A stretch of DNA of 64,000 bases from Labilithrix sp. (GTDB lineage Bacteria; Myxococcota_A; Polyangia; Polyangiales; Polyangiaceae), in contig JAHCIY010000002.1 of the NCBI GenBank assembly GCA_026128965.1, positions 1,512,108 to 1,576,107 of the forward strand. Direction: 5' to 3'. The number at the start of each line of letters is the position of its first letter. Position 1 is the first letter of the stretch. A program made the translations under genes and the position numbers. Of this stretch, positions 5,501 through 27,713 are shown in pieces. A model generated the notes under the pieces. That model did not search any database, was not told the DNA's origin, and saw only the letters and a list, made by a program, of their open reading frames with translations.

Positions 5501-5712
5501 GCCTCGAGTGGCTGATGGACTCGCTGATGCACGAGCAGCGTCGCATCCGCGGCCTCGCGGGCGAGGAGCTGAAGTGGATCACGAAGGAGTCCTTCGGCTA
5601 CTACGACGACCTCCCCCGCCGCGAGCGCGAGCGCTCGCAGCAGAGGTTCCGCGACTGGTGGGAGCACGTCGGCCGCGTCCGCTTCAGCCGCGCCGCCACC
5701 CGCGGCGCGTAG
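2548..5712 (+). CDS. T2SS-E N-terminal (MshEN-like) domain protein with a long Pro-rich linker and C-terminal HEAT/PBS-lyase repeats
   Basis: The N-terminus LIVQRGVATIREIEEALARQVLYGGDFVTNLLE is GspE_N-like. The central roughly 400 aa are Pro/Ser-rich and low complexity. The C-terminus has repeated DxxVRxxAxxAL HEAT-like units. Confidence 0.7.
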   Translation: MSLSSLIVQRGVATIREIEEALARQVLYGGDFVTNLLEVSRVEEGALMPVVGEFYGLPAAPPGELPQPAGTALRIVAADVVQERTFVPLEAGASLVVAVAEPLSKEAEQELTFALALPIEQKVAPLFRIRQALARDYGIPIDKRIARLIQKVVTKGPIIASTFPPPLDSAPKIRVPPRPPSMIPPPVAPAPASPKMSVEPRTAAAPQGTYVREIEPQQARPPRRRRGPLTLAVAVEELEASVERDFIFDVLFEFTRQFFDYTALFVVQGDVAEGRDAFGDGAPRDKVARLAVPLDDEGILGGARKEKKPVRRRPSAVADAVLMTDLGRDGQTECIVFPIVVRTRVVSLILGDGGTSGIEDIGVRQVESLIDTAAGAFERVIMRRKLKGEAPSDAKGKKDTVPPPPTMVSEPAQQEDRISAEELAAPIREIMMEPPSKRHVVRLDPEPPISARPPLPIESGPPPPSGRPGATNPPRRRATAPSFEFGFKSEPSIVSESKRPEGLPVIHVHHASVPASDPVPNIHEAVTAPPPPSPRALETALETGNEAPSTTRDPVPGVSLPAHPWAEGVPPVSDAPHSPKAESPPPMRAAPITDVSPQPIQIGPISEAVPDFSEDQLATKVGHTTDPSPPSLDLPPSKPPPPVELAEPRTFVASEPLFDEEEAASFSQLVVQNLDQDADMPVFDPEATPVAPTVIEGETPAAPAVLRSEPVLALSTRKGDAPLPIPSFQQKPMPPSEGQVSVGPHHPPSSHSDHSRVLPSVIVDVSSEYVGLVERAIAGEDEEAEAQLLRAGGYAMPAIMAKFPGPITIEAERLDLDALPRVADCGPVIRLIASQRRTALPFVLAHVEAPDAESRFWATYLLTELVYPDAIDAAIARAFDDDAKVRRAARAAVHALAESHPQAVVERLGELTLAQTVDLRIRAIEALAETREPSAVQVLLPLLDENDSEVAIATQKGLVLLTRQDFGLDLEKWTAWWDANKGRHRLEWLMDSLMHEQRRIRGLAGEELKWITKESFGYYDDLPRRERERSQQRFRDWWEHVGRVRFSRAATRGA

Positions 5713-5722
5713 CTCACGCCGC

Positions 5723-7105
5723 TCACGCCGCGTTCGGGAGCCGGCGCGCGGCGGGGAGGCGGATCATGAAGGCGGTGCCGCGGCCGACCTCCGTCTCGAA
5801 GGTGAGCTCGCCGCCGTGTTTGTCGACGATGATGCGGCGGGCGATGGCGAGGCTCTGCCCCGTGCCGCGGCCGACCTCCTTCGTCGTGAAGAACGGGTCG
5901 AAGATCTTGTCGCGGATCGCGACCGGGATCCCGTTCCCGGTGTCGCGGACGCAGACGTGCGCCCAGCCGTCGTCTTGCCACGTCCGCACCTTGATCCGGC
6001 CGCGCGTGCCCGCGCCGTGGTTCGCGTCGGCGACGGCGTGGGCCGCGTTCACGATCAGATCGAGCAAGACCTGGTTCACCTCGCCGCCGTGGCAGTGCAC
6101 CGGGGCGAGCTCGCCGAGCTCGGTCTGCAGCTCCGCGACCTCGGCGTACTCGGGCGCCGCGATCGCGAGCGTGCTGCGGATGCACGCGTTGAGGTCGACG
6201 GCCGATTTTTCGGTCCGGTCCGGCTGCGAGAAGTCCTTCAGCGATTTTACGATGTGGCCGATCCGCTGGAGCCCGTCGAGCGCGTTGTCGAGCGCGATCG
6301 GGACGTTCTCGAGCGCGAAGTCGGTGTCGGCGCTCTCGTCGGCGTCGCGCGCCTTCTCCATCACGTCGGGCGGCGCGAGGGAGACGGCCTCGCGGTAGCT
6401 CTCGATCACCGAGCTCACCGCGGGGAAGGTGCTCTTGATGTAGTGGACGCTGTCGGCGACGAACTGCACCGGGGTGTTGATCTCGTGCGCGATGCCGGCG
6501 GCGAGGCGGCCGAGCGACTCGAGCTTCTGCGCCGATCGCAGCTCGGCCTCGAGGCGATGGCGCGCGGTGACGTCGAGGAAGATGCCGCTCAGGAACGGCC
6601 GCGACTCGGCGTCGAGCAGCGTCTGCACGATGCCGCGGAGCACGAGCTCCTTCCCGCCCGCGGCGGCGAGGCGGAGCTCGACCTCGCGATGGGTCCCCTC
6701 CGCGACGGAGCCGAGCGCGCGGCGGAGGTCGGCGAGGTCCTCCGCGTGGACGTGGCGTTCGAGGAAGTCGGTGTCGGTCCACGCGCGGATGGGGTGCCCG
6801 ACGATCGCGACCGCCTGCGGCCCGACGTAGGTGAAGCGGAGGCTCTCGGGCGCCATCCGGAACGGGATCGCCTGCGTCGTCTCGAGGAGCTGGCGGTACT
6901 CCTCGCGGCTCACGGTGAGCTCGCGCGTGCGCTCCTCGACGCGCGCCTCGAGCTCGCGCTGCTGTCGCGAGCGCACGATCAGCGTGCCGGTCGCGGCGAT
7001 CAGCACCGTCGCGACCGGCGCGAGCTTCGCGGGCGCCGCCCACATCGTCACCACGGTGGCGATGACGGCCACCACACAAGGTTTCGCGGTCCTTCGACCC
7101 ATCTT
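5723..7105 (-). CDS. sensor histidine kinase with TM/PAS region
   Basis: H-box HEINTPVQFVADSVHY and HATPase motifs (DTGNGIP, GTGQSLAIARRI). The start is placed at MGRRTAKP, which has a GAGGG RBS. The upstream part of the 507-aa ORF is probably not coding. Confidence 0.8.
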   Translation of the reverse strand, partial: KMGRRTAKPCVVAVIATVVTMWAAPAKLAPVATVLIAATGTLIVRSRQQRELEARVEERTRELTVSREEYRQLLETTQAIPFRMAPESLRFTYVGPQAVAIVGHPIRAWTDTDFLERHVHAEDLADLRRALGSVAEGTHREVELRLAAAGGKELVLRGIVQTLLDAESRPFLSGIFLDVTARHRLEAELRSAQKLESLGRLAAGIAHEINTPVQFVADSVHYIKSTFPAVSSVIESYREAVSLAPPDVMEKARDADESADTDFALENVPIALDNALDGLQRIGHIVKSLKDFSQPDRTEKSAVDLNACIRSTLAIAAPEYAEVAELQTELGELAPVHCHGGEVNQVLLDLIVNAAHAVADANHGAGTRGRIKVRTWQDDGWAHVCVRDTGNGIPVAIRDKIFDPFFTTKEVGRGTGQSLAIARRIIVDKHGGELTFETEVGRGTAFMIRLPAARRLPNAA

Positions 7106-16649: not shown

Positions 16650-16723
<74 letters not shown>

Positions 16724-16772
16724 CTGATAGCCGTACCACGACCCAGCCCTCGGCCCTCCGCCGGGGGCTTCG

Positions 16773-18039
16773 TCATTTCGGCGAGCGCGACGAGCGGGAG
16801 GAAGGTTGCCTCCGCGACGTAGACGCCGTCGTCTCCGGGGGTGAGCAGGATTCGTCCGCCTTCGAACATCCGGCGTAGAGCCTCGCGGGCGCGGAGGGGG
16901 TCCGCGGCGAGCACGGCGTCGAGGTCCTTCGCGCGTTCGAGGACGCGGTCGGGGTCGGGAGGTCCACGGGAGCGTTCATCCGGTCCTTGATGTTCTGAAT
17001 CGCCGTGCGTTCCGTGAGAGCTTGTGCCTCAAGGTCCCGAAGGGCGTCGCGGACCGAACTGGAATGGTCGCCGTCGGCGATGAAGGTGACGAGCCCGCGT
17101 ATGCGTTGCTCCGTCCGGGCGAGGCGGTCGAGCCTCTCCTTCATCTCGTGCTGTGCGAGCCGCGCGGCCTCACCGAGGTGCTCTGCAATGCGCTTGCGAA
17201 GGTGGGCCACCGCAGCCGGTGTGAAGACGGCTTCACGAAGCGCGCCATAGATGCGGGCGCGGACGAGGTCCTCTCGTACCGACAGGGCGTTCTTGCAGAC
17301 GCCCCGCTTCTTCGAGTCCCCGCAGCGATAGTACGAAGTTCGCGGTCCGACCGCCTTGCCGTCGACCTCCGCTCGGGAGCCGCCGGAGATGACCATCGGC
17401 GAGTGGCACGCTGCGCAGATGAGGAGTCCGGAGAGAGGGTAGGCCGTGCGGGCGCCGGGCGCAGACCGCGTCATCCGCTTTACCGTGTATCGACTCCGTA
17501 CTTCGGCGAGACGGGTCCGGACTCTTGTCGGGGACGCTGCAGTATCCAAGCGGGAGCCCGCCGGTCGAGTAGCCGGCGTTGAACTGACTCTCAAGCCCGC
17601 GCAGAGTCTTGTCGCGAAGAGCGTCGAGATAGAGGTCGGCGACCAGGCTCGACATCGTGAACGTCAGCTTGGCCGTCTTCAGTCCCGTGTTGACGCCATC
17701 GGCGACGCCTATGAGGGCGACGTCGAGGTACTGGAGGCGCTTGAAGATGAACGCCGCGTCGGCGAAGTCTCGCGACACGCGCGACATGTCCTCGACGAGA
17801 ATGACGTCGACCCGCTTCTCTTCGACGGCCTTCATCAGCCGCTCGAACCCCGGGCGTTGGAGGCTAGCGGCGCTGACGGCCTCGTCCTTGAAGATGAGCG
17901 CGGGAATCACCTCGGCTCCCGACGCTCGCGCCGCTTCCACGCACCGTCGTACTTGGTCATCGGTTGACCGTTCGTTCTGCAGGGCCGACGAGTGCCGTGC
18001 ATAGACGGCGATTTGCTTGCCGGCAAGGGTACTAGTCAT
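16773..18039 (-). pseudogene. large serine recombinase, disrupted by a frameshift and an internal deletion
   Basis: The resolvase domain (KQIAVYARHSS...VDVILVEDMSRVSR) plus GGLPLGY lie in the frame of ORF 17233..18162. The zinc ribbon (YPLSGLLICAACHSPM) and coiled coil lie in the frame of ORF 16773..17594. Only about 25 codons separate GY from the zinc ribbon where about 90 aa of recombinase domain are expected. Confidence 0.65.
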
Positions 18040-18685
18040 CGCGTACACCGGGTACGTCAGCATGACGAGCATCTCGGACGTCGGTCGTGGTCGAGGTCCG
18101 GCACCAGCCGAGCGCTTCACCGCCGAGACGCACATCGCGCCGACGCAGGTGGGCAAGGGCATCGCGGGTCCTCTCTCCGATGGCCTCGCGCTCCCACTGC
18201 GCCACCGACCCGATGATGTGGAGCACGAGACGTCCCGAGGCGGTACGGGTGTCGATGGAGTCGCCGAGGGAGAGTAGGGAGTGGCGCCGGGAGAAGTACC
18301 GCTCGACGAGGTCGCCGAGGTCGCGGACGCTGCGGGTTAGGCGGTCGAGTTTCACGACGAGAAGTCCGTCGGCTTCGTCGGCGTCGAGGCGCCCGAGGGC
18401 GCGGAGCAGTCCGGGTCGGCCCACCACCGTCTTCGCGGAGATGCCCGCGTCCTCCTCAATGGTGACGAGGTCGAGGTCCATCGCCTCTGCGTAGGCGGTG
18501 AGCTTGGCCCTCTGTGCTTCGAGGGAGGTGCCGGCGTCCGCCTGACCGTCCGTGCTGACCCGGATGTACCCGACCACGCGTGTTCCCAAGGCGTCACCTC
18601 CTTGCGAAGGGGTACCCCGGGGTGGTCCTCGTTTTCGAGATGGGCATCTCGTAAACGGCAAGTACCCCATTCCGATGGCTTCCAC
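18032..18685 (-). CDS. small serine recombinase, catalytic domain only (C-terminal HTH missing)
   Basis: VVGYIRVSTDGQ...LLVVKLDRLTRS...GSVAQWEREAIGERT is a resolvase/invertase catalytic domain. It has no DNA-binding HTH. It ends 7 bp inside the next recombinase gene. The true start is likely the GTG at 18577. Confidence 0.55.
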   Translation of the reverse strand: MEAIGMGYLPFTRCPSRKRGPPRGTPSQGGDALGTRVVGYIRVSTDGQADAGTSLEAQRAKLTAYAEAMDLDLVTIEEDAGISAKTVVGRPGLLRALGRLDADEADGLLVVKLDRLTRSVRDLGDLVERYFSRRHSLLSLGDSIDTRTASGRLVLHIIGSVAQWEREAIGERTRDALAHLRRRDVRLGGEALGWCRTSTTTDVRDARHADVPGVRDD

Positions 18686-18738
18686 TTGGCTGCGCCAGGC
18701 GGCTTGACATCCATCCAGGTCGCCATCATCATTCTTGG

Positions 18739-19212
18739 ATGACAGTTCGTCTTTCGGTCTTGCGACGCGGAACTCAGGTCGAGATTGAGGGGCCCGAGGC
18801 CTTCGTAACGAGCACTTTCGAGAGCTTGAGGGACCTGTTCGACAAGCCGAATGTTAAGGATGATAGCGCGGATGAACCGCCCACCAACGATGGCGAAAAG
18901 GCTGGCGAGGAAGGTTCGAGGGTGTCGCTCAAGACGTTCCTTGAGCAGAAGAAGCCTCAAAACTCCTACGAGGCCATCGCGTGCGTTCTCTATCACCACC
19001 AAAAGTTCCGCGAGCAGAGCGAACTGAACTCTGACGAGATACGGAAGGCGCTCCTCCAAGGCCGCGTGAAGCCGCCGGGGAACATGACGCAGACGCTTAC
19101 AGACTGCCGTCGCCGCTACGCGTACATCGAGCCTGGGACGAAGAAGGGACTCTGGAAGTTGAGCCACGACGGAGAGGTGACGGTCGACCTGGACCTGCCG
19201 CGCGAAAAATGA
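18739..19212 (+). CDS. hypothetical protein with a winged-helix-like domain shared with the two downstream proteins (cassette gene A)
   Basis: Low-GC gene with an ATGA overlap to the next gene. The region SLKTFLEQKKPQNSYEAIACVLYHH...KKGLWKLSHDGE aligns with 20391..21020 and with the N-terminus of 19209..20336. Confidence 0.6.
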   Translation: MTVRLSVLRRGTQVEIEGPEAFVTSTFESLRDLFDKPNVKDDSADEPPTNDGEKAGEEGSRVSLKTFLEQKKPQNSYEAIACVLYHHQKFREQSELNSDEIRKALLQGRVKPPGNMTQTLTDCRRRYAYIEPGTKKGLWKLSHDGEVTVDLDLPREK

Positions 19213-20336
19213 GTGAGACGTTTTCGGAGCTGTATGCGCAGCTACCTCGGGGGAAAAGGTCTCCAAGGAATGCCGTTCTTCTCGGTCTCCTCGTTCTTCG
19301 CGCGGATAAAGCCGCCTCGGCCGTCGACAGTAATGCCATTTCGGCTGAGCTGAAACTGCGCCTCGGCAAGGCGGCTCCTGGCAATGTGCCTGACGTTTTG
19401 AGGAAGGCCATTCCTCGAGTGGAATGCACTCGGGTCGCTAAAAGCGGACTGCGTTGGCATCTCACGAGGACAGGTGTCGACGAGCTTCGATCATACGGAC
19501 TTCAAGTGTCGCAGGAGAAGGCGGCACCGCCTGCTCGGTCGTTCGATGTCGCCATTGTCTGCGCTCTGCACAGTCCTGAACTTCACGAGGTTCTGAACGC
19601 GTTCGGAGGCGAGTCGAAATGGCAGAGCCAGCCCGACTTCGGTCAAACCCACATATACAAATCAATTGACGTGCCGTTGTCGGGCGCACCGCCTCTGAGT
19701 GTTGTGGCCGGAGCCCCCACGCACATGGGGCTTACTGCAACTGCCATCATCTCCACGCAAATGCTGCTCATGTTTAGACCTCGGCTCATCGTGATGGTCG
19801 GAATTGCAGCGGGCACGAAGGCCTCGGGACGAAACTACGGTGACATCTTGGTCGCTAACCCCAGCGTGGACTACGCGTCCGGCAAGATTGCGGTAGTTGA
19901 CGGCGTTGAGACATTTCAGCCCGATCCGTTTCCCTTGCCGGTCGACTCCAGACTGCACACGCTGGTCCAGGAAGATCGACGTACGAGAGAGGGACTGGAC
20001 GAGATCGCTGGTACTTGGGGCGGCGCCCGGCCCCGAACTTCGCTCAATATCCACATTGGTGCACTCGGGGCAGCGGACCAAGTGGTTGATAGCGAAAAGC
20101 GAATCCTCGATATCAAGAAGAACTGGCGAAAGTTGATCGGCGTCGAGATGGAGACGTATGCCCTCTACCGTGCTGCGCATGAGGCCCCGCGGCCGAAGCC
20201 TCTCTACGTGAGCTTCAAGTCAGTCTGTGACTTTGCTGCCGCGAAGGACGACGCGTGGCAGGAGTACGCCGCCTTTACAGCGGCTCAGTACTGTCGCCGT
20301 TTCCTGCTCAAAAACTGGTCTGTGCTCAGTGCCTGA
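19209..20336 (+). CDS. fusion of the shared winged-helix-like domain (N-terminus) with a PNP/UDP-phosphorylase family nucleosidase (MTA/SAH-nucleosidase fold) domain (cassette gene B)
   Basis: The C-terminal 270 aa read FDVAIVCALHSPE...IVMVGIAAGT...GVEMETYALYRAA, which is the PNP_UDP_1 fold. The N-terminus PRNAVLLGLLVL...PGNVPDVLRKAI...KSGLRWHLTRTG resembles the domain in genes A and C. Confidence 0.7.
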   Translation: MSETFSELYAQLPRGKRSPRNAVLLGLLVLRADKAASAVDSNAISAELKLRLGKAAPGNVPDVLRKAIPRVECTRVAKSGLRWHLTRTGVDELRSYGLQVSQEKAAPPARSFDVAIVCALHSPELHEVLNAFGGESKWQSQPDFGQTHIYKSIDVPLSGAPPLSVVAGAPTHMGLTATAIISTQMLLMFRPRLIVMVGIAAGTKASGRNYGDILVANPSVDYASGKIAVVDGVETFQPDPFPLPVDSRLHTLVQEDRRTREGLDEIAGTWGGARPRTSLNIHIGALGAADQVVDSEKRILDIKKNWRKLIGVEMETYALYRAAHEAPRPKPLYVSFKSVCDFAAAKDDAWQEYAAFTAAQYCRRFLLKNWSVLSA

Positions 20337-20390
20337 CAACTGAGTTCATTCATATCCAATATTCATTTTCGTGCGAGCGCAAGAGCGCCA

Positions 20391-21020
20391 TTGGGGACAG
20401 GAAGCTTTATGAGCGAAGATGCGAAGTCTGATTTTATGGCGGCGGAAGAGATTAAGAAGATTCTGCACGGTCGGCAAAAGGCAGAACAGGAACGCATCGT
20501 CCGATGGGTGAGTGAGAGCCTTGAGCTTGCCGGTGCAGCGGTCAAGCCGAAGGTCGAACACGCGCACCCGGGCGTTCACGTTCCCGCGACGCTTGCGGAC
20601 ACGCCCTCGAGGCCCAGAGACGGAGAGGCAGGGCCCAAGGACTTTCGAAGCTTCTTCCAAGAGAAGCAGCCGAAGAACGATGTTCAGTTCGTGGCCGTGG
20701 CCGCGTACTACCACCGCTTCATGGCACCCGCCGCTGACCGCAAGGAGGCGATTTCGTCTGCAGACCTCCAGGACGCAGCGCGTCTCGCCCCCTGGACCGT
20801 TTTCGCGAAACCGAGCAAGACACTCGGCAACGCTGTGCGGCAAGGCTACATGAACGGCTCTGGAAGAGGCACGTACCGATTGAATGCAGTGGGCGAGAAC
20901 CTGGTGTCCATGACACTTCCGGGGACGGCCACGACTGGTTCAACTAAGGGCGGCCGCGGGAAGCGGCGACCATCGAAGAAGGCGGGAGCAAAGAAGTCAC
21001 GGAAGTCCGGCAAGGGATGA
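20391..21020 (+). CDS. hypothetical protein with the shared winged-helix-like domain and a Lys/Arg/Gly-rich C-terminal tail (cassette gene C)
   Basis: DFRSFFQEKQPKNDVQFVAVAAYYHRF...GRGTYRLNAVGE is a paralogue of gene A. The tail is GSTKGGRGKRRPSKKAGAKKSRKSGKG. ATGA overlap with the next gene. Confidence 0.6.
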   Translation: MGTGSFMSEDAKSDFMAAEEIKKILHGRQKAEQERIVRWVSESLELAGAAVKPKVEHAHPGVHVPATLADTPSRPRDGEAGPKDFRSFFQEKQPKNDVQFVAVAAYYHRFMAPAADRKEAISSADLQDAARLAPWTVFAKPSKTLGNAVRQGYMNGSGRGTYRLNAVGENLVSMTLPGTATTGSTKGGRGKRRPSKKAGAKKSRKSGKG

Positions 21021-21820
21021 GTGACACACTCGGACATATCGAGGCGGCCATCGCCGAGGTGGCACGGGCACGAAGCGCAGTGCAGCGTTCAAAGTCCCCC
21101 CAAGTCCGTGGCGCCGAAGAACGTGACGGTCTGAAGGCCGTGGCCTATGCGTGGTTCAAGACCCACAAGCCGCGCGTCGGAGACCTCGACGTGAGTGCTG
21201 TCGACAATGCATACCAGAAGGTTCTCGACGCCACCGCGAAGGCCGCCGCTCGGTCTACCTACGTGAGCACGCTGAAGGCGGCAAAGGACGCGCTCGTCAC
21301 TCTCCGTCGCCTTGTGACTGCAGTCCCTGTCCGGAATAGCAAGACGACAGCGGATGCGCCGCCGCCATTTGCGTCGCTTACCGGAGATGTCGCCATGCAG
21401 GAGATTCTCACCCGACGATGGACTGAGGTGCAGACCTGCATCAACGCGGGAGCCAATCTGGCGGCGACCGTGATGATGGGCGGCCTAATGGAGACGCTGC
21501 TTCTTGCGCGCATCAACGTCGTCGCGAACAAAGCCCCCATCTACACTGCGAAGAATGCACCCAAGGACAAGGCCGGCAAGACACTGTCGCTCAATGACTG
21601 GAAGTTGGTCGCCATGGTAGAAGTTGCGCACGAAGTTGGATGGATAACGAAGTCCGCCAAGGATGTCGGGAACGTCCTTAGAGACTTTCGGAACTACATT
21701 CACCCGCACAAGGAACACACCGATGGCATCTTGATAGGCGCGGAAGACGCGCGTGTGTTCTGGGAGGTTTGCGGGGCTATCAGTCGGCAACTCCTGGCCT
21801 CGACTGGCAAGATTCCCTGA
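21017..21820 (+). CDS. HEPN-like protein with a putative R-x6-H nuclease motif (cassette gene D)
   Basis: Alpha-helical protein. The C-terminal motif DFRNYIHPHKE fits the Rx4-6H pattern of HEPN RNases. Translationally coupled to gene C. Confidence 0.55.
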   Translation: MSDTLGHIEAAIAEVARARSAVQRSKSPQVRGAEERDGLKAVAYAWFKTHKPRVGDLDVSAVDNAYQKVLDATAKAAARSTYVSTLKAAKDALVTLRRLVTAVPVRNSKTTADAPPPFASLTGDVAMQEILTRRWTEVQTCINAGANLAATVMMGGLMETLLLARINVVANKAPIYTAKNAPKDKAGKTLSLNDWKLVAMVEVAHEVGWITKSAKDVGNVLRDFRNYIHPHKEHTDGILIGAEDARVFWEVCGAISRQLLASTGKIP

Positions 21821-21854: not shown

Positions 21855-22499
21855 CTAAGACACGTCGTCTACACGACACAGCCGGACGCCGACACGCTGC
21901 CTGAGGTCGTGGTACGGCCCGCGTATCGCCCCCGCGCAACTACTCGCAGAATACCGCGGATCTTGGTCCGCACCCCGCCGCCCTCCCTGGTCCGCCACGG
22001 AGGGCGGAGTCGTTAGTAGGACCAGCGGGAGGATCTCGGACTCGGCGACGTAGAACCCGCCCGGTTGAGGGTTGAGTCGAATCTTCCCGTCATGGAAGAG
22101 GCGCCTGAGCTCTTCCCGTCCCTTGGAGACGTCCGCCATCAGGCGACGCTCGAGATCGAAGACCAGCGCGGTCATCCCCTCCGGCGTCGGGAGGGAGATC
22201 GGCACCGTGGCGTCGCGCTCGAGGGCCTTTACCTGGCGACGGAGGACCTTCGCTTCGGTTTCGAGCGTCTTCAACCGTTCGCGGATCGTCGGCGAACCTT
22301 GGCCGTCCGCGATGAAGTCGACCATCGACGAACCGCAGACCCCGCAGACAAGGAGCGAGGAGAAGAGGTACGAGCTCGCGCGTCCCGGAAGCGCGCGCCC
22401 CTTCGGCGAAGTCCGACGACATGATCGCGACGCTCGTCGTCTTCGGGCCACCGAGCTCGGGCGGCAACGTGAGGAAGGCATCGCCGTAGCGGTCTCCAT
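21855..22499 (-). pseudogene. C-terminal remnant of a second large serine recombinase (zinc ribbon + coiled coil)
   Basis: SSYLFSSLLVCGVCGSSMV...LKTLETEAKVLRRQVKALE parallels the C-terminus of 16773..18039. There is no catalytic or recombinase domain upstream. Confidence 0.55.
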
Positions 22500-22657
22500 T
22501 GTTGGCTACTGCCGTCCCTCAAAAGAACCCCTCGTGGCCATCCACTTCGTTCCGCCAAGGGCCTCGTCGGCGAATCACGTCGGCCGTGAAGATGACCGTC
22601 TCCGCTAGCGCGCTGTCGCTCTTGAGCGAGTTCGACACGTGCCAGCCGACGATCGAC

Positions 22658-22843
22658 CTAGACGACGCCCGCCCAGGTCGCATCGTAGGTGAGGTCGGCG
22701 ACCCAGAGCTGGTTCGGTCGCTCGGCGTGGAACTCTCGCGGCGCGAGGCCCGGCGGCCGCGGCGACGCGTCGTCGGCCTCGGTGGTGATCTTGAACGCGC
22801 GTCCGCGGACGGCGGCTGCGAAGCGTTCGCCACGAAGTGACAA
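22658..22843 (-). mobile_element. IS3-family transposase (rve integrase core) fragment
   Basis: FHAERPNQLWVADLTYDATWAGVV matches the start of the IS3 OrfB catalytic core. Only about 60 codons remain. Confidence 0.5.
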
Positions 22844-22884
22844 GTGGCGTCCCCTTCAGGTATGGTCGGCTCGGAAGCGCGGTC

Positions 22885-23577
22885 ATGGTCGTCTTGCGTC
22901 AGCGGAGCACGCGGATTCGTTTCGTCATCCCTCACGCGCTGTTGGCGTTGCTGGCCGTGGTTGCGGCGTGCAGCTCATCGAGCACGGCCGGTGGAACTGT
23001 GCCGTGCGAGGTCGAATGCGACGGGGACGAGGTCTGCTCCGCAGGGAAGTGCGTCCCAGCGACGGACGCCTCGACATCCGAGACGGGCACGAAGCAGGAC
23101 GGCGAGTCGTGCGTCATCACCGGCTCGAACTGTGACCCGTCTTGCTTGGAGTCCTGCGGTGCGTCGTCGTCCTGCGTCGACCGGTGCTGTCCCGATACGA
23201 AGGGCGCGGGCATCCTCTGCGGCGGTCAGTGCGTCGCGCCGAAATGCAAAAAGGGCGAGACCTCCTCGACGTGGGAGGGGTTCTCGGAGCGCGAGTGGAC
23301 CTGCTACGAGATAGCCGGCGGCTGCGACTGCACGAACACGTCGACGCGCGCCGAACTGGTGGCGGACGGCATGAAGATCTTGCCGAGCTGCGCTGGCGCC
23401 TCCTGCGCAATCGATCTCGACTCGCCTGCTCTGACCTGCACGTGCCGCGCGACGGGCACATCACTCCCGCGCGACTGCCCCGGGACCGTCTGCACGGCAG
23501 GCGTCTTGGCTTGCACGGGACCGTTCAACTTCAAGTGCGATGACCCGTGCGTCGGGGTCGCCGTGCTCCATCCGTAA
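22885..23577 (+). CDS. cysteine-rich secreted lipoprotein
   Basis: Signal peptide with lipobox (LLALLAVVAAC-SSS). More than 30 Cys in CxxC/CxC arrangements. Native high GC, so it lies outside the island. Confidence 0.6.
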   Translation: MVVLRQRSTRIRFVIPHALLALLAVVAACSSSSTAGGTVPCEVECDGDEVCSAGKCVPATDASTSETGTKQDGESCVITGSNCDPSCLESCGASSSCVDRCCPDTKGAGILCGGQCVAPKCKKGETSSTWEGFSEREWTCYEIAGGCDCTNTSTRAELVADGMKILPSCAGASCAIDLDSPALTCTCRATGTSLPRDCPGTVCTAGVLACTGPFNFKCDDPCVGVAVLHP

Positions 23578-23984
23578 ACGACACCTGGAACGGTCCGCCG
23601 AGCACGGCGCGGTAGCCGAGCTCCGGGCGCGGGTACCGTGCAAGCGTCATCTCCGCCAAACGGGCGACGTACGGTCCGATCGTGGTTCGTGCACGAGCAA
23701 GGCGCGCTCGTTTCGGTGCTCCGCGTGGCGGCGGCGCGTGACGAGCAGATGTTCGCTTCGATGCAAAGGAAGCCTGGATGAGAGGCGCATCGCGCGGGCG
23801 GATGGGAATCGGGCGCCGGGGGCTCGGCGATCGCGCGCTCGATCACGGCGGCGATGGTCGGGGATGGCCGGTGCGACGTGGCATCCGTCCCAGAAGGCGT
23901 CGGCGAAGTCGTACGGCGCGGCATGGCCGCTCCTGCGCTCTCCGCCTCGGCGGCCTCGTCGCGGCCTCGTGTTAGCCTCCGGGC

Positions 23985-26900
23985 GTGTGGGAGCGCTTTG
24001 AGCTTGGCGCGCGTGTGAACGGCGGCGGGATGGGGGACGTGTATCGCGCGGTCGATCGCGTGACGGGGGACGTCGTCGCGGTGAAGCGGATGCGCACCGT
24101 TCAGGCGGAGGCTACGCAGCGCTTCTTGCGGGAGAGCCGGCTCCTCGAGGCCGTGAGCCATCCTGGCATCGTGCGCTACGTCGCGCACGGCATCGATGAC
24201 GACGGCGCCGCGTGGCTCGCGATGGAGTGGCTCGATGGCGAAGACCTCGGGGAGCGGCTCGCGCGAAAGGCGCTCGCGCCGGCGGAGTCGCTCGAGGTGG
24301 CCGCGCTCGTCGCGGAGGCGCTCGGCGCCGCTCATCGCGCCGGCGTCGTCCATCGCGACGTGAAGCCGAGCAACGTGTTCCTCGTCGGCCGCGACCCGAA
24401 GGACGTGCGGCTGCTCGATCTCGGGATCGCGAAGCCGCTCCGCGGCACGGCGATCACGGCCGCCGGGATGATGGTCGGTACGATCGGTTATCTCTCGCCC
24501 GAGCAGGCGCGCGGCAAGCCCGTCGACGCGCGGAGCGACGTCTTCTCGCTCGGGTGTCTGCTCTTCGAGTGCCTCACCGGGCGGTCCGCCTATCACGCGG
24601 AGCACGCCGCCGCCGTGGTCGGGAAGCTCCTCACCGAGGCGCCGCCCGCGCCGAGCAGCGTCGACCCGAGCTTCGCGCGGTACGACGCATTGTTCGCGCG
24701 GTTGCTCGCGCCGCTCGAGCAGCGCCTCTCGGACGGCGCCGCCGTGGCGCGGGCGATCCGCGCGCTCGAAGCGGAGGCGTCGGGCGCGGCGGCGAAGTCG
24801 GTCCCGCCCTCGAAGCTCACCGACCGCGAACGACAGGCGCTCACCGTCGTGCTCGCGCGCCCGCATGGGCTCGACCCGAGCGGCGCGACCGAAGCGGAGG
24901 CCTCCGAAGAGCGCAAGCGACAGCGCCTCGCGCATGCGGCCGCGGCCGCACATGCACGGCATGAATGGCTGCCGGGCGGCCTCTTCCTCTTCGTTTGGGA
25001 GCTCGACTCGGCGCGCGATCAGACCATCCGCGCCGCGCGTTTCGCGCTCGCGCTGCAGCACGAAGGCGGATACACGATCGCGCTCGCGACCGGCTTCGGC
25101 GAGCGCGCCGGCTCGAACGCGGTCGGCGGCGTCATCGATCGCGCCGCGAGCCTCGTCTCGCGCGCGGGCGAGGTCTCCGTCGCGCTGGACCCCGCGTCGA
25201 TCGAGATCCTGCGCCATCGCTTCGAGATCGACGGCGCGCGGCTGGGCGCGGAGCTCGCGCGCGCGCACGAGATCGCGGACCGAACGCCGTTCGTCGGACG
25301 CGACCGCGAGATGCGGCTCATCACGAGCTTGCTCGACGAGTGCGTCGCCGACGGCACGACGCGGGCGATCCTCGTCACCGGCGAGGCCGGCGCGGGGAAG
25401 TCGCGGCTCCTGCGCGAGCTCCTGCGACGAAGCGCTCCCGAGCGCGTCTGGATCGCGCGCGGCGATCCGATGCGCCCGGGCTCGCCCTACACGATGCTCT
25501 CGCAGCTCCTTCGGCGCGCCGCGGGAATGAGCGCGACGGCGACCGATCGCGGGGCCTTCGTCCGCGCCCTCCGCGCGCTCGTCGCGGACGAAGGCGCGCT
25601 CGAGCTGCTCGCGCACGTCGCGGGCTTCGTCGATGAAGCGCCGAGCGCCGCGTTGCGCGCGGCGCAGAATAGCCCGTCCGTCATGGCGACGCACATCCGG
25701 CAGGCGGCCCTCGCCCTCTGCGCGGCGGGCGCGGGCGAAGGCCTGCTCGTCGTGATGCTCGAAGACCTGCATTGGGCGGACGCGCCGAGCCTTCGAGTCT
25801 TCGAGTCGCTCGTGCACGCGGTGGAGCACCCGATCTTCATCGTCGGCGCCGCGCGGCCGACCTTTCACGAGACGTTCCCCGGGATCTGGACGAGCCAGGG
25901 CGTCGAAGAGCTGCGCCTCGCCGGGCTCGCGCGCAAGGCCGCGGAGGCGCTCGCGCTCGCCCTTCGGCCCGGCGCGAGCAGCGAAGCCGTTCGCCACGCC
26001 GTCGATCGCGCCGGCGGCAGCCCGCTCTGGCTCGAAGAGCTGTTCCGGCACGGCGGGGGCGACTCCGCGGAGACGCCCGATTCGCTCCTCGCCGTCATCC
26101 AGACGCACTTGGCGCGGGAGCCGTCGAACGAGCGCCTCGTCCTGCGCGCGGCGGCGGTGTTCGGCGAGCGCGCGTGGCTCGACGGTATCGCCCTGCTCGC
26201 CGGACGAGCCGCGTCCGAGATCGAGCTCGCGGTCGCTTCTCTCGTCGAGAAGGAGTGGCTGGTGCCCCTCGAAGCGTCGCGCTTCGCCGGCGAGCGCGAG
26301 GTGCGCTTCCGCCATGGCCTGCTCCGCGACGCCGCCTACGCCGCCTTGACGAGCGAAGACCGCAAGGTGGGGCACCGCCTCGCGGCGGAGTGGCTCCGGG
26401 CCGCCGGTGAACGCGACGCGCTCTCGCTCGCGGAGCACTACGAGCGCTCCGAGACGCCGGCGGCGGCGATCCCACATTTCGTCGTCGCCGCGCGCGAAGC
26501 CTCGATGGCCAACGATCTCGACGCGGCGCTCCTGTGCGCTGCGCGCGGGATCGCGCTCGGCGCCACCGGCAGCGACCTGCATCGACTCTTGCTCGCCGAA
26601 GGGAGCGCGCTCAGCTGGCGTGGCAAGGTGAGGGAAGGCTGGCGATCGTTCGACCGTGCGTTGCGCGAGACGGCGACCGCGAGCGCGGATCCGGCCGTCG
26701 TCTCGTGGGCAGCGATGAGCGGCGCGATGAACATGGACGCGTCGATGACGAGGCGCGCCGCGAACGCGCTCGAGTCGCTCGACCCCGCCACGTGCCCCGG
26801 CGACGACTACCAGCAAGCCGCTAGCTTCGTCGTCGTCGCGCTCTATTGGGACGGCGAGCGCGAGCGCGCCGACGCGGTGCTCGCCAAGCTCGCGCTCCTG

Positions 26901-27713
26901 CCCGACGATCCCGATCCGCGGGCGCGCGGCTGGAACGCGCACAGCCGCGCGCAGCACGCCCGCTTCAGCCTGGGGAACACGTGGCTCGATCGAGCGGCGT
27001 GCTTGGAGAGCGAGCGGGCCTTCGAGGAGGCGCGCGACCCCGCGGGCTACGGCCACTCGCTCAGCCAGCTCGTCATCGCGGAGCTCTCGCTCGACGCGCG
27101 TGAAGAGGCGACGGCGTACGGTACACGCGGGTACGCGCAGGCGCAGAAGTACTCGTTGCCGATCCTGAACGCGTGGTCGCTCCCGGTGACCGCGCTCGCG
27201 ATGCCCGATCCCGCCTCGGCGAGGGCGCGCGTCGAAGAGTCGATCCGCAGCGCCTCGATGCTGGGCGACGGCGTCTTCGGCGCGTATTCGCTCGTGCTCA
27301 CGGCTCACGTGCAGCGCATCCTCGGCGATCCCGAAGGCGCGATCGACACGCTGACGAAGGTGCTGTCGCAGGAGCCGGCCTTCGCCGTCGACTGCGCCTG
27401 CCACATGCAGCTCGCCGGCGCGCTCTTCGAAGCCGGCCGCGCGGAGGAGGCCGCCGCGGAGTGCATGACCGTCGTCGCGGCGACGCAGCACCGGCATCTT
27501 CACGGCGCGCTCGACCTCGACTTCTTCGCGACGAGCGCCGAGACGATGCTCGCCGTCGGACAGGTCGATGCGTGCCGGATGGTGCTCGCGCGCGGGCAGA
27601 AGGTCATCGCGCGCCGCGCGGACGCGATCGACGAGCCCGCGCGACGAGAGCGCTTCCTGACGTGCACGTTCGCGCAGCGGCTTCGACGTGTCGCCGCCGA
27701 GCTCGCCCGGTGA
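23985..27713 (+). CDS. serine/threonine protein kinase with degenerate cyclase-like domain, AAA/STAND NTPase domain and TPR repeats
   Basis: Kinase motifs VAVKRM, HRDVKPSNV, DLGIAK. Walker A GEAGAGKSRLLRE. C-terminal TPR-like repeats. This is the myxobacterial PknK-like architecture. Confidence 0.85.
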   Translation: MWERFELGARVNGGGMGDVYRAVDRVTGDVVAVKRMRTVQAEATQRFLRESRLLEAVSHPGIVRYVAHGIDDDGAAWLAMEWLDGEDLGERLARKALAPAESLEVAALVAEALGAAHRAGVVHRDVKPSNVFLVGRDPKDVRLLDLGIAKPLRGTAITAAGMMVGTIGYLSPEQARGKPVDARSDVFSLGCLLFECLTGRSAYHAEHAAAVVGKLLTEAPPAPSSVDPSFARYDALFARLLAPLEQRLSDGAAVARAIRALEAEASGAAAKSVPPSKLTDRERQALTVVLARPHGLDPSGATEAEASEERKRQRLAHAAAAAHARHEWLPGGLFLFVWELDSARDQTIRAARFALALQHEGGYTIALATGFGERAGSNAVGGVIDRAASLVSRAGEVSVALDPASIEILRHRFEIDGARLGAELARAHEIADRTPFVGRDREMRLITSLLDECVADGTTRAILVTGEAGAGKSRLLRELLRRSAPERVWIARGDPMRPGSPYTMLSQLLRRAAGMSATATDRGAFVRALRALVADEGALELLAHVAGFVDEAPSAALRAAQNSPSVMATHIRQAALALCAAGAGEGLLVVMLEDLHWADAPSLRVFESLVHAVEHPIFIVGAARPTFHETFPGIWTSQGVEELRLAGLARKAAEALALALRPGASSEAVRHAVDRAGGSPLWLEELFRHGGGDSAETPDSLLAVIQTHLAREPSNERLVLRAAAVFGERAWLDGIALLAGRAASEIELAVASLVEKEWLVPLEASRFAGEREVRFRHGLLRDAAYAALTSEDRKVGHRLAAEWLRAAGERDALSLAEHYERSETPAAAIPHFVVAAREASMANDLDAALLCAARGIALGATGSDLHRLLLAEGSALSWRGKVREGWRSFDRALRETATASADPAVVSWAAMSGAMNMDASMTRRAANALESLDPATCPGDDYQQAASFVVVALYWDGERERADAVLAKLALLPDDPDPRARGWNAHSRAQHARFSLGNTWLDRAACLESERAFEEARDPAGYGHSLSQLVIAELSLDAREEATAYGTRGYAQAQKYSLPILNAWSLPVTALAMPDPASARARVEESIRSASMLGDGVFGAYSLVLTAHVQRILGDPEGAIDTLTKVLSQEPAFAVDCACHMQLAGALFEAGRAEEAAAECMTVVAATQHRHLHGALDLDFFATSAETMLAVGQVDACRMVLARGQKVIARRADAIDEPARRERFLTCTFAQRLRRVAAELAR

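Follow-up and report, generated by a model that had tools for sequence, protein, structure and literature searches.

Why a small winged-helix domain should recur in three of four consecutive genes, and in one of them be joined to a predicted effector enzyme, is the question raised by genes A to D of Labilithrix sp. The preliminary description of the 64,000-nucleotide stretch analysed here (the window) had read the pattern as three copies of a domain of approximately 75 amino acids, alone in A and C and fused N-terminally to a PNP effector in B. The ORF list places the four genes where that description had them, and they sit in a mobile island of this myxobacterial genome. GC content is 59-66% across 17-23 kb of the window, compared with 70-75% in the flanks, and a tRNA-Met gene (16,650-16,724, forward strand; ARAGORN) marks the left edge. 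Between the tRNA and gene A lie fragmented serine-recombinase genes on the reverse strand (16,773-18,685; two Resolvase domains and one Zn_ribbon_recom in Pfam), and a further Zn_ribbon_recom fragment is found at 21,855-22,499, also on the reverse strand (Pfam). Long repeats or att-like sites that might bound the island were sought, and only short, chance-level matches emerged.

By both sequence and comparative genomics, the genes form two separable bicistrons, A-B and C-D. The start of B overlaps the stop of A in an ATGA (19,209-19,212), and the start of D overlaps the stop of C in the same way (21,017-21,020), whereas an AT-rich spacer of 55-72 nt separates the two pairs. The pairing of A with B and of C with D, suggested earlier, is upheld by these overlaps and by the recurrence of C-D on its own elsewhere. 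Both pairs have the layout of a type II toxin-antitoxin operon, with a small winged-helix protein coupled to a downstream enzyme.

Gene A (18,739-19,212, forward strand) encodes a protein of 157 residues, identical to KIT84_18630 of a Labilithrix sp. MAG. It starts with a strand-strand-helix unit (approximately residues 1-36), continues through a low-complexity linker and has its winged helix in the C-terminal part (residues 62-150; 18,922-19,188), the last placed by homology to the domain of C and by hhalign to two further families, BN and I, introduced below. The family is rare (5 clusters and 17 metagenome loci), and A matched none of the Pfam, NCBIfam or PADLOC models. Just upstream, a consensus scan found a promoter-like site, TTGACA-17-CATCAT (18,704-18,732, part of 18,704-18,744, forward strand), the single hit against 0.7 expected by chance. 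A repeat scan showed that an imperfect inverted repeat, TGACATCCA / TGGATGACA (18,705-18,713 and 18,736-18,744), flanks this site and overlaps the start codon of A; this arrangement weakly suggests a candidate operator.

Gene B (19,209-20,336, forward strand) encodes 375 residues, comprising a winged helix and a PNP effector, of which the NCBI annotation contains only 276. Since more than 100 homologues of 371-388 residues span the full length of the protein (44-60% identity over 98-100% of B), the long ORF is correct. The N-terminal domain, which we call BN (residues 1-95; 19,209-19,493), was modelled by AF2 with a pLDDT of 91.9 as helices 5-11, 19-29, 41-55 and 60-66, strands 71-76 and 80-85, and a final helix 87-95. 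Every Foldseek match of BN was a winged helix (TubR, forkhead, MarR, CzrA and F93). An exhaustive search of 1.84e9 proteins recovered only 103 representative BN clusters. Searches of PDB sequence profiles with the BN, C and D families gave sub-threshold matches only (the CooA HTH at 1.6 and the eS10 wing at 0.05); D produced no match.

The remainder of B is a PNP_UDP_1 nucleosidase domain (residues 95-368; 19,491-20,312), scoring 56.9 bits with PF01048 against a cut-off of 25.1 and with the acidic motifs conserved. Residues G311, E313-M314-E315 and D341 do not vary among 40 homologues and lie within G-x-E-M-E and C-D-F motifs; the GVEME of B aligns with the corresponding motif of MTA/SAH nucleosidases (MTANs), and we infer that D341 is the counterpart of the catalytic Asp. 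B also matches the PADLOC profile PDC-M60C (E 4.4e-63) and the CBASS 'PN-superfamily' effector (E 4.5e-10). From its sequence, B is predicted to be an adenine-nucleotide (ATP-type) nucleosidase of the PNP fold.

The solved structures closest to this domain are MTANs (3e-8), and some relatives of B carry the database label 5'-methylthioadenosine/S-adenosylhomocysteine nucleosidase, as might be expected if B were a housekeeping MTA/SAH-type enzyme, A and C ordinary transcription factors, and no conflict system were present. Several results make this highly improbable. The NCBIfam MTAN equivalog gives B only 43 bits against a cut-off of 169, while the match to PDC-M60C, a defence candidate, is very strong. 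At other loci, BN carries HEPN domains in place of the PNP domain. Furthermore, the island around the genes is low in GC, adjoins a tRNA and contains remnants of recombinases, and the occurrence of the genes across phyla is patchy: BN-PNP proteins, numbering more than 700, are distributed in this way over Acidobacteriota, Verrucomicrobiota, Planctomycetota, Bacteroidota, Nitrospirota, Pseudomonadota and Myxococcota.

Downstream of B, the AT-rich spacer (20,337-20,408, forward strand) carries TTCATT and GAGCGC direct repeats. It is probably the promoter region of C-D; a consensus scan called no promoter in it. Gene C extends from 20,391 to 21,020 on the forward strand if read from a TTG (209 residues), but a start at ATG 20,409 (203 residues), which is preceded by a Shine-Dalgarno-like GGAAG, is more likely. 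The protein matches KIT84_18640 (203 residues) and 121 family clusters. In the AF2 model, helices at residues 14-25 and 30-43 are followed by a disordered stretch (45-83) and by a winged helix (85-174; 20,643-20,912) with a pLDDT above 95. The K/R-rich tail noted previously is indeed present at residues 183-209 (20,937-21,017), where the model is disordered (pLDDT below 60), and is conserved in the C family, whose consensus is also K-rich. A likeness of C to linker histone H1 is a fold-level analogy confined to architecture, since many bacterial repressors score higher, and C differs from H1 in having an extra N-terminal helical domain and in being tied to a gene for an HEPN-like protein. No Pfam, NCBIfam or PADLOC model matched C, and neither A nor C of the window matched PF13338 (AbiEi_4) at E ≤ 1; however, 27 of 91 C-family members matched it, the best at 2.7e-5. 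On these profile matches the partner winged helix is related to the AbiEi_4 family, of which A and C themselves are not certified members.

Gene D (21,017-21,820, forward strand; 267 residues) has a helical N-terminal half and an HEPN-like C-terminal half (residues 117-265; 21,365-21,811). The latter contains invariant columns, among them the motif R222-D-F-R225-N-Y-I-H229-P-H231 (RNYIHPH; 21,680-21,709), with R-x6-H and R-x5-H spacings. The C-terminal half also occurs alone on plasmids (tblastn), and one such plasmid relative gives a sub-threshold match to DUF4145 of the HEPN clan (E 0.0011). Comparison of D with the C-terminal domain of family I gave a sensible register (hhalign P 0.008), and D itself matched nothing in Pfam, NCBIfam, PADLOC or the PDB. 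These similarities point weakly to an HEPN assignment, on which D would be an HEPN-type RNase. Assignment of D as a Ymh protein was rejected, the hhalign comparison of D with the Ymh domain having matched spuriously on the winged-helix part (P 0.1).

How, then, are the three winged helices related? A and C are genuinely homologous as judged by sequence comparison: BLASTP aligned them over 104 residues at 28% identity (E 1e-8), their family HMMs match reciprocally at about 5e-9, and hhalign gave 97.6% (P 2.8e-12). The N-terminus of B behaved differently. Its BLASTP E values against A and C were 1.4 and 2.2, and it was not reported at all by either family HMM, so that, at the level of single sequences and HMMs, B fails the significance tests that the preliminary description had itself named. 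A remote relationship of BN to A is nevertheless rescued by other evidence. A profile of 113 BN sequences matched a profile of 19 A sequences (hhalign 80%, P 1.4e-5), aligning B22-91 with A79-147 in the register proposed in the preliminary description, whereas reversed decoys gave P values of 0.1-0.6. An intermediate, family I, was found in the exhaustive search and is composed of a winged helix and an HEPN-like domain: it matched BN at 99.1% (P 5.5e-19), and its N-terminal winged helix matched the A domain at 97.2% (P 3.9e-11), against decoys of 0.15-0.33. Direct profile comparison of BN with C detected nothing (P 0.22; range 0.11-0.94).

The structural models agree with this picture. A, C and the B N-terminus each have a three-helix core, a beta-hairpin wing and winged-helix structural neighbours, and the AF2 models of BN and C share the element order H0-H1-b-H2-H3-hairpin wing-H4. 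It might be argued that BN resembles A and C merely as any winged helix would, with no specific evolutionary or functional link. We consider this improbable, given the matches of family I to both BN and A with clean decoys, the direct BN-A match in the same register, and the extra H0 and H4 helices common to the BN and C models; in addition, BN genes persistently adjoin partner genes, and natural chimeras (P0334 and P0345) exist. The locus therefore contains one homologous pair (A, C) and a much more diverged third winged helix from a separate family. The earlier observation is thus partly confirmed: the three domains are not equivalent copies, and the modelled domain spans about 90 rather than 75 residues. 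Nor does the domain stand alone in A and C, both of which have three parts: an N-terminal domain, a disordered linker and the winged helix.

Other genomes revealed how these parts are combined. BN is a mobile N-terminal module, fused to PNP (in more than 100 full-length proteins) or to Hypoth_Ymh HEPN domains, behaviour that accords with the sensor or adaptor role suggested for it. BN effectors nearly always adjoin a small partner composed of an N-terminal domain, a linker and a winged helix, which is either A-type or of a second class that we designate E-type. An A-type gene is followed by a BN-Ymh(HEPN) gene in 13 of 18 loci; such proteins are the usual effectors beside A-type partners, with Ymh E values of 1e-20 to 1e-23. 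Of 40 genome loci with BN-PNP genes, drawn from many phyla, at least 37 have an E-type partner after the effector. In the four nearest relatives of B whose DNA is readable, the E-type partner lies upstream. The N-terminal domain of the E-type partner is homologous to that of C (hhalign 82%, P 1e-5). Its C-terminal domain, a putative winged helix, gave P values of 0.034, 0.0095 and 0.15 against A, BN and I, and no PADLOC, Pfam or NCBIfam model matched the protein. Upstream of family I effectors, too, lies an overlapping gene for a partner built in the same three-part way. Among the chimeras, P0334 has a C/E-type N-terminus joined to a BN-type winged helix, and in P0345 an A-type protein is naturally fused to such a winged helix, which fits a physical or functional partnership of A-type proteins with BN. 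C-D forms more than 120 clusters, and a C-type gene precedes a D-type gene in all three distinct loci examined, whose neighbourhoods are unrelated (D homologues of 269-276 residues).

The frequency of an E-type gene after B relatives, together with the homology of the E and C N-terminal domains, raises the possibility that A-D is a single four-component system, in which C partners both B, from downstream, and D, with A as an extra regulator. Indeed, the gene after B in the window is C, and multi-partner variants are known in which two or three small winged-helix genes precede one HEPN effector (L073 and L087). We think such a system unlikely. C-D occurs in isolation, with no PNP gene, in the three unrelated neighbourhoods; conversely, pairs of an A-type partner and a BN effector exist without C or D. 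The C of the window is an orthodox member of the C family (67% identity to its nearest relative), not an E-type protein, and it is set apart from B by the AT-rich spacer, unlike the overlapping junctions within each pair.

Parallels with described systems help to define what is new here. PDC-M60 has a PNP effector, PDC-M60C, close to the catalytic part of B, and its design is similar: a small upstream protein of about 150 residues, PDC-M60B, is homologous to the N-terminal domain of PDC-M60C, and its gene overlaps the effector gene, as at A/B. At locus L050, the B-type protein matches the PDC-M60C profile over its initial 132 positions (3.3e-9), and the PDC-M60B profile is matched by the C-type protein (4e-9). 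However, the duplicated domain is another one: residues 1-95 of B do not align to PDC-M60C 1-131, and the partner in the window is a three-part protein only remotely related to the effector N-terminus. Assignment of A-B to PDC-M60 was rejected because B matches only positions 132-400 of the 407 in the PDC-M60C profile. A, C and D gave no match to PDC-M60 profiles at E ≤ 1, A against PDC-M60B included, no equivalent of PDC-M60A was found, and true PDC-M60 B/C pairs (L050, L054 and L059) look different from the window. Genes of 149-164 codons upstream of distant PNP proteins (L050-L068) were considered as A-type and proved to be PDC-M60B.

In AbiE, AbiEi carries its winged helix at the N-terminus, with a dedicated antitoxin domain after it; the AbiEii toxin is a DUF1814 nucleotidyltransferase. 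The window shares with AbiE a bicistron in which a small AbiEi_4-type winged-helix protein adjoins a toxic or, here, putatively toxic enzyme, and by this analogy autoregulation by the winged helix is plausible. The genes do not belong to AbiE: the winged helix lies at the C-terminal end, the enzymes beside it are of PNP or HEPN-like type, and Pfam and PADLOC scans found no nucleotidyltransferase domain. B also resembles Cap17 and the Detocs protein DtcC, in which a PNP_UDP_1 effector is preceded in the same protein by a sensor or receiver domain that varies, but it carries a winged helix instead of a SAVED or receiver domain, and the window has no cyclase, kinase or NLR partner. PNP domains of the Cap17 clade are ATP nucleosidases that convert ATP or dATP to adenine and ribose-5'-triphosphate, and a catalytic-Asp mutant loses defence (10.1101/2023.01.24.525353). 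In some Detocs systems, PNP is replaced by other toxic domains (10.1101/2023.01.24.525353), much as PNP is exchanged for HEPN here. Hypoth_Ymh (PF09509) and DUF4145 HEPN proteins are known from abortive-infection and R-M contexts, component B of PD-lambda-3 among them; D and family I have HEPN-like motifs of the R-N-x-x-x-H type. In BN-Ymh proteins, the Ymh portion gives a match to PD-Lambda-3_B (6e-7), and PD-lambda-3 is an experimentally validated abortive-infection system (PMC13190303). Published Ymh fusions comprise paraMORC, AbiJ-NTD1 and AbiTii; a fusion to a BN winged helix with a small partner is absent from that list (PMC3710099). No description of the A/C winged-helix partner together with the BN architecture was found in the literature.

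Taken with the observed homologies, folds, gene order, overlaps, effector and partner swapping, fusions and island context, these comparisons lead us to consider it probable that two neighbouring cassettes of two genes each, A-B and C-D, make up the locus, each mobile independently of the other and both belonging to a single modular toxin-antitoxin or abortive-infection-like family. The label 'defence' rests on the effector domains and the context, because A, C, D and the E-type partner match no models. For both cassettes we infer toxicity, neutralisation, a trigger and substrates as follows. The partner, a short N-terminal domain joined by a disordered linker to a C-terminal AbiEi_4-like winged helix (with the K/R tail in C), would be translationally coupled to its effector and bind DNA, possibly regulating its own expression at the palindrome over the A promoter. 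It would keep the effector inactive; in B, where BN is a distant paralogue of the partner's winged helix, restraint might involve contact between the two winged helices or joint binding of nucleic acid. Phage infection, or loss of a labile partner, would release the effector, which would then deplete ATP (B) or cleave RNA (D), so that growth stops. The partner might instead be an activator or sensor and not an antitoxin; the downstream position of E-type partners in most loci is atypical for classical antitoxins. Because A with BN-PNP is seen only here, all other B relatives examined using E-type partners, A-B may be a recent, possibly non-functional recombination in a decaying island.

If the cassette model holds, the locus represents a family of two-gene immune or toxin-antitoxin modules that is widespread and has as yet no name. 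ATP-nucleosidase and HEPN effectors would thereby gain a new kind of regulatory partner, and further systems could be sought by a simple rule: a small protein bearing a diverged copy of the effector's N-terminal domain. A bolder and rather doubtful extension posits an undescribed anti-phage superfamily in which the winged helix of the effector (BN or I-type) pairs with its paralogue on a small, exchangeable partner (A, C, E-type and others), the heterodimer acting as a switch that senses nucleic acid. Interchangeable suicide enzymes (ATP nucleosidase, or Ymh, DUF4145-like or AF_1680-like HEPN domains) would then be unlocked when nucleic acid of a phage is recognised or the partner is lost. Such a switch would have a parallel in PDC-M60, where another domain is duplicated in like manner; if real, it would imply that PNP and HEPN effectors are generally regulated by free-standing copies of their own N-terminal domains.

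Irrespective of mechanism, the analysis corrects the truncated annotation of gene B and provides names and boundaries for four 'hypothetical' protein families. No relatives of the B and C families turned up in scans of IMG/VR viral contigs. In keeping with a mobile or defence setting, genes found near relatives include those for BrnT, RhuM, PIN, integrase, JetC/JetD, SLATT and MtlR-type HEPN proteins.

The window holds an adjacent pair of cassettes from an unnamed modular family, in which a small winged-helix partner is combined with a winged-helix-tagged PNP or HEPN effector. They lie in a stretch of 59-66% GC, against a genome background of 70-75%, that runs from a tRNA-Met gene at its left edge (16650-16724) to ~22.5 kb and is framed by serine-recombinase fragments (Resolvase, Zn_ribbon_recom). 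Two serine-recombinase genes, frameshifted or fragmented, follow the tRNA (16650-18685), and past the last gene of the pair come a further Zn-ribbon fragment of a recombinase and a remnant resembling a transposase (21855-22935). The region has the appearance of a decayed integrative element, or of several elements in a mosaic, carrying the four genes; a search for clean att repeats bounding it found none. Directly downstream is a gene for a 1242-aa Ser/Thr kinase with an AAA/STAND-like and TPR-like region (23985-27713, + strand), overlapped by a 1399-aa antisense ORF (23304-27503, - strand) that is spurious and typical of high-GC DNA.

All four genes are on the + strand. The partner gene A (18739-19212, 157 aa) precedes the PNP effector gene B (19209-20336, 375 aa), and the partner gene C (20391 or 20409-21020) precedes the HEPN-like effector gene D (21017-21820, 267 aa). 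An ATGA overlap joins A to B and C to D, and an AT-rich spacer of 55-72 nt separates B from C. The A and C proteins are identical to hypothetical proteins KIT84_18630 and KIT84_18640, respectively, of a Labilithrix sp. MAG (Myxococcota). The start of C is ambiguous between TTG 20391 (209 aa) and ATG 20409 (203 aa), the latter with GGAAG upstream; the ATG is the better fit to the NCBI model (203 aa) and to the family consensus. Ahead of A is a promoter-like site, TTGACA-17-CATCAT (18704-18732), flanked by a 9-nt imperfect inverted repeat (TGACATCCA / TGGATGACA; 18705-18744) that extends into the A start codon and is a candidate operator for a winged-helix dimer.

The preliminary description had proposed three copies of one ~75-aa domain, in A, in C and at the N-terminus of B (BN, residues 1-95). 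This was partly confirmed. A and C are one clear homologous pair, matching over ~100 residues (BLASTP E 1e-8; reciprocal family HMM matches, ~5e-9; hhalign 97.6%, P 2.8e-12), whereas BN is a third winged helix, much more divergent and in a family of its own, and the domain measures ~90 aa. By the tests proposed at the outset BN did not resemble A or C: BLASTP gave E values of 1.4 and 2.2, and the A and C family HMMs did not match it. Once a metagenome scan had enlarged the A family from 5 to 19 sequences, hhalign aligned it with BN (113 sequences) at 80%, P 1.4e-5, pairing B22-91 with A79-147 and recovering the register originally suggested; reversed-profile decoys gave P 0.1-0.6. A BN-profile search run exhaustively over 1.84e9 representative proteins yielded no more than 103 clusters, among them a family of winged-helix plus HEPN-like proteins (family I, 241-253 aa) whose N-terminal winged helix matches both BN (hhalign 99.1%, P 5.5e-19) and the A domain (97.2%, P 3.9e-11; decoys, P 0.15-0.33). 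By these comparisons, BN is a winged helix and a distant relative of the A domain. Direct comparison of the BN and C profiles detected nothing (P 0.22), so the relationship is a chain from C to A to family I to BN. In view of the family I matches and their decoys, we consider a resemblance of BN to A and C merely at the level of fold unlikely.

The NCBI model of B (KIT84_18635, 276 aa) omits the winged helix. Since more than 100 full-length homologues (371-388 aa) span 98-100% of the 375-aa ORF, which begins at the ATGA overlap with A, that model has lost BN. A PNP_UDP_1 domain (Pfam, 56.9 bits) occupies residues 95-368 and is related to PADLOC PDC-M60C (4.4e-63) and to a CBASS PN-superfamily effector (4.5e-10), and the G-x-EME and CDF motifs are invariant in the family. 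The closest solved structures are MTA/SAH nucleosidases (3e-8), as a housekeeping role for these genes might predict, and yet the MTAN equivalog model scores 43 bits, far short of its 169-bit cut-off; we regard such a role as very improbable.

In C, two N-terminal helices predicted with confidence (residues 14-43) are followed by a disordered linker (45-83), the winged helix and a K/R tail; the tail was pointed out from the outset and is conserved in the C family. Among 91 C relatives, 27 match Pfam AbiEi_4 and 5 match Mrr_N. A has a short N-terminal segment unlike that of C, a linker and the winged helix. D had no database match, but conservation is extreme in its C-terminal half, where the RDFRNYIHPH motif is invariant; this half has homologues on plasmids in other architectures. 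One of these plasmid relatives gave a sub-threshold match to DUF4145 (HEPN clan), and alignment of the half with the 'LRNxCGHP' domain of family I is weak (P 0.008) but in a plausible register. D is probably a HEPN-type RNase.

C homologues occur in three unrelated neighbourhoods, each followed directly by a D homologue (269-276 aa) with no PNP gene nearby. Given these separate C-D pairs, a single four-gene system, A-B-C-D, seems rather unlikely. B relatives were surveyed in 64 genome loci from many phyla. A ~210-aa (E-type) gene immediately follows BN-PNP in at least 37 of 40 full-length cases, and lies immediately upstream instead in the four closest relatives with readable DNA (56-60% identity). 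E-type proteins begin with a helical domain homologous to the one at the N-terminus of C (hhalign 82%, P 1e-5); a linker follows, and then a C-terminal domain with a wing-like GYTLTARG end, for which comparison with the other winged helices established no homology (P 0.01-0.15). At 13 of 18 A-homologue loci the next gene, usually overlapping, encodes not PNP but a 241-258 aa protein of BN (E 1e-19 to 1e-27) and Hypoth_Ymh HEPN (E 1e-20 to 1e-23). The Ymh motif of the BN-Ymh proteins (L001, L074-L085) reads A-N-V-D-K-H-G, without Arg at the usual HEPN R-x4-6-H position.

Overall, a small three-part partner accompanies BN genes in at least 54 of 62 loci with readable DNA. At one examined locus (L093), a 167-aa three-part protein precedes a family I gene with a 1-nt overlap. 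Chimeras also occur: P0334 joins a C/E-type N-terminus to a BN-type winged helix, and P0345 (L094, 3001-3900; complete genome CP041731.1) fuses an A-type protein to a further winged helix of BN type. The gene immediately before P0345 encodes 244 aa and has a DUF4145-like 'LGNFAAHK' HEPN motif, and SLATT_5 and Hol_Tox genes lie in the region. In multi-partner variants (L073, 3992-5736; L087, 3830-6120), an A-type gene and one or two additional genes for small winged-helix proteins precede a DUF4145-like HEPN gene; the L087 HEPN protein starts with a winged-helix-like segment. BN is thus a mobile module found at the N-terminus of at least two effector types, and partners and effectors are shuffled between loci. 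Among the loci examined, A is paired with BN-PNP in the window only. Neighbours of the relatives include BrnT, RhuM, PIN, integrase, JetC/JetD, SLATT and MtlR-type HEPN genes, and a scan of IMG/VR viral contigs found neither the B nor the C family.

Of the known systems, the PADLOC candidate PDC-M60 comes closest. The PNP domains of PDC-M60 and of the window's B protein are close relatives, and in PDC-M60 the small upstream protein, component B, shares homology with the N-terminal domain of the PNP protein, component C (reciprocal E 3e-9 and 4e-9; L050, L054 and L059, genes ~4100-5800). The design of stand-alone copy plus effector fusion, taken initially as typical of sensors or adaptors in conflict systems, recurs there, built from a different domain. 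Taken as a whole, the initial interpretation is partly supported. A literature search found no description of this internal duplication. The shared PDC-M60 domain weakly matches the N-terminal part of the PADLOC SduA (DUF4263) profile. Assignment of A-B to PDC-M60 itself failed, the N-terminal profile region being unmatched and A not being PDC-M60B. AbiE shares an AbiEi_4-like winged helix but differs in domain order and toxin. The literature search likewise found no description of the present winged-helix partner and effector architecture.

By analogy, the layout of A-B and C-D is that of a type II toxin-antitoxin or abortive-infection bicistron: a small, translationally coupled protein with a DNA-binding domain and a disordered linker, and a potentially lethal enzyme as second product. 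Cap17-clade PNP domains convert ATP to adenine and ribose-5'-triphosphate, aborting infection (10.1101/2023.01.24.525353), and Ymh and DUF4145 are HEPN families tied to Abi and R-M systems (PMC3710099). PD-lambda-3 is an abortive-infection system that has been validated (PMC13190303), and its component B is matched by the Ymh region of the BN-Ymh proteins. From this layout and these precedents we infer every functional step of the following mechanism. A and C would repress their own operons and hold B and D, respectively, inactive, and infection or partner loss would free the enzymes. We somewhat favour this general toxin-antitoxin or abortive-infection-like model, which would place the cassettes with modules whose effector folds are already known. 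More tentatively, the winged helix of B may serve as a docking or co-sensing surface for that of its partner. Finally, at L097, the locus of the closest B relative, a gene of 200 aa whose HEPN motif is MtlR-like (KIRNTFAHN; 429-1031) lies just upstream of the E-type and BN-PNP pair, which suggests that HEPN and PNP cassettes also cluster elsewhere.
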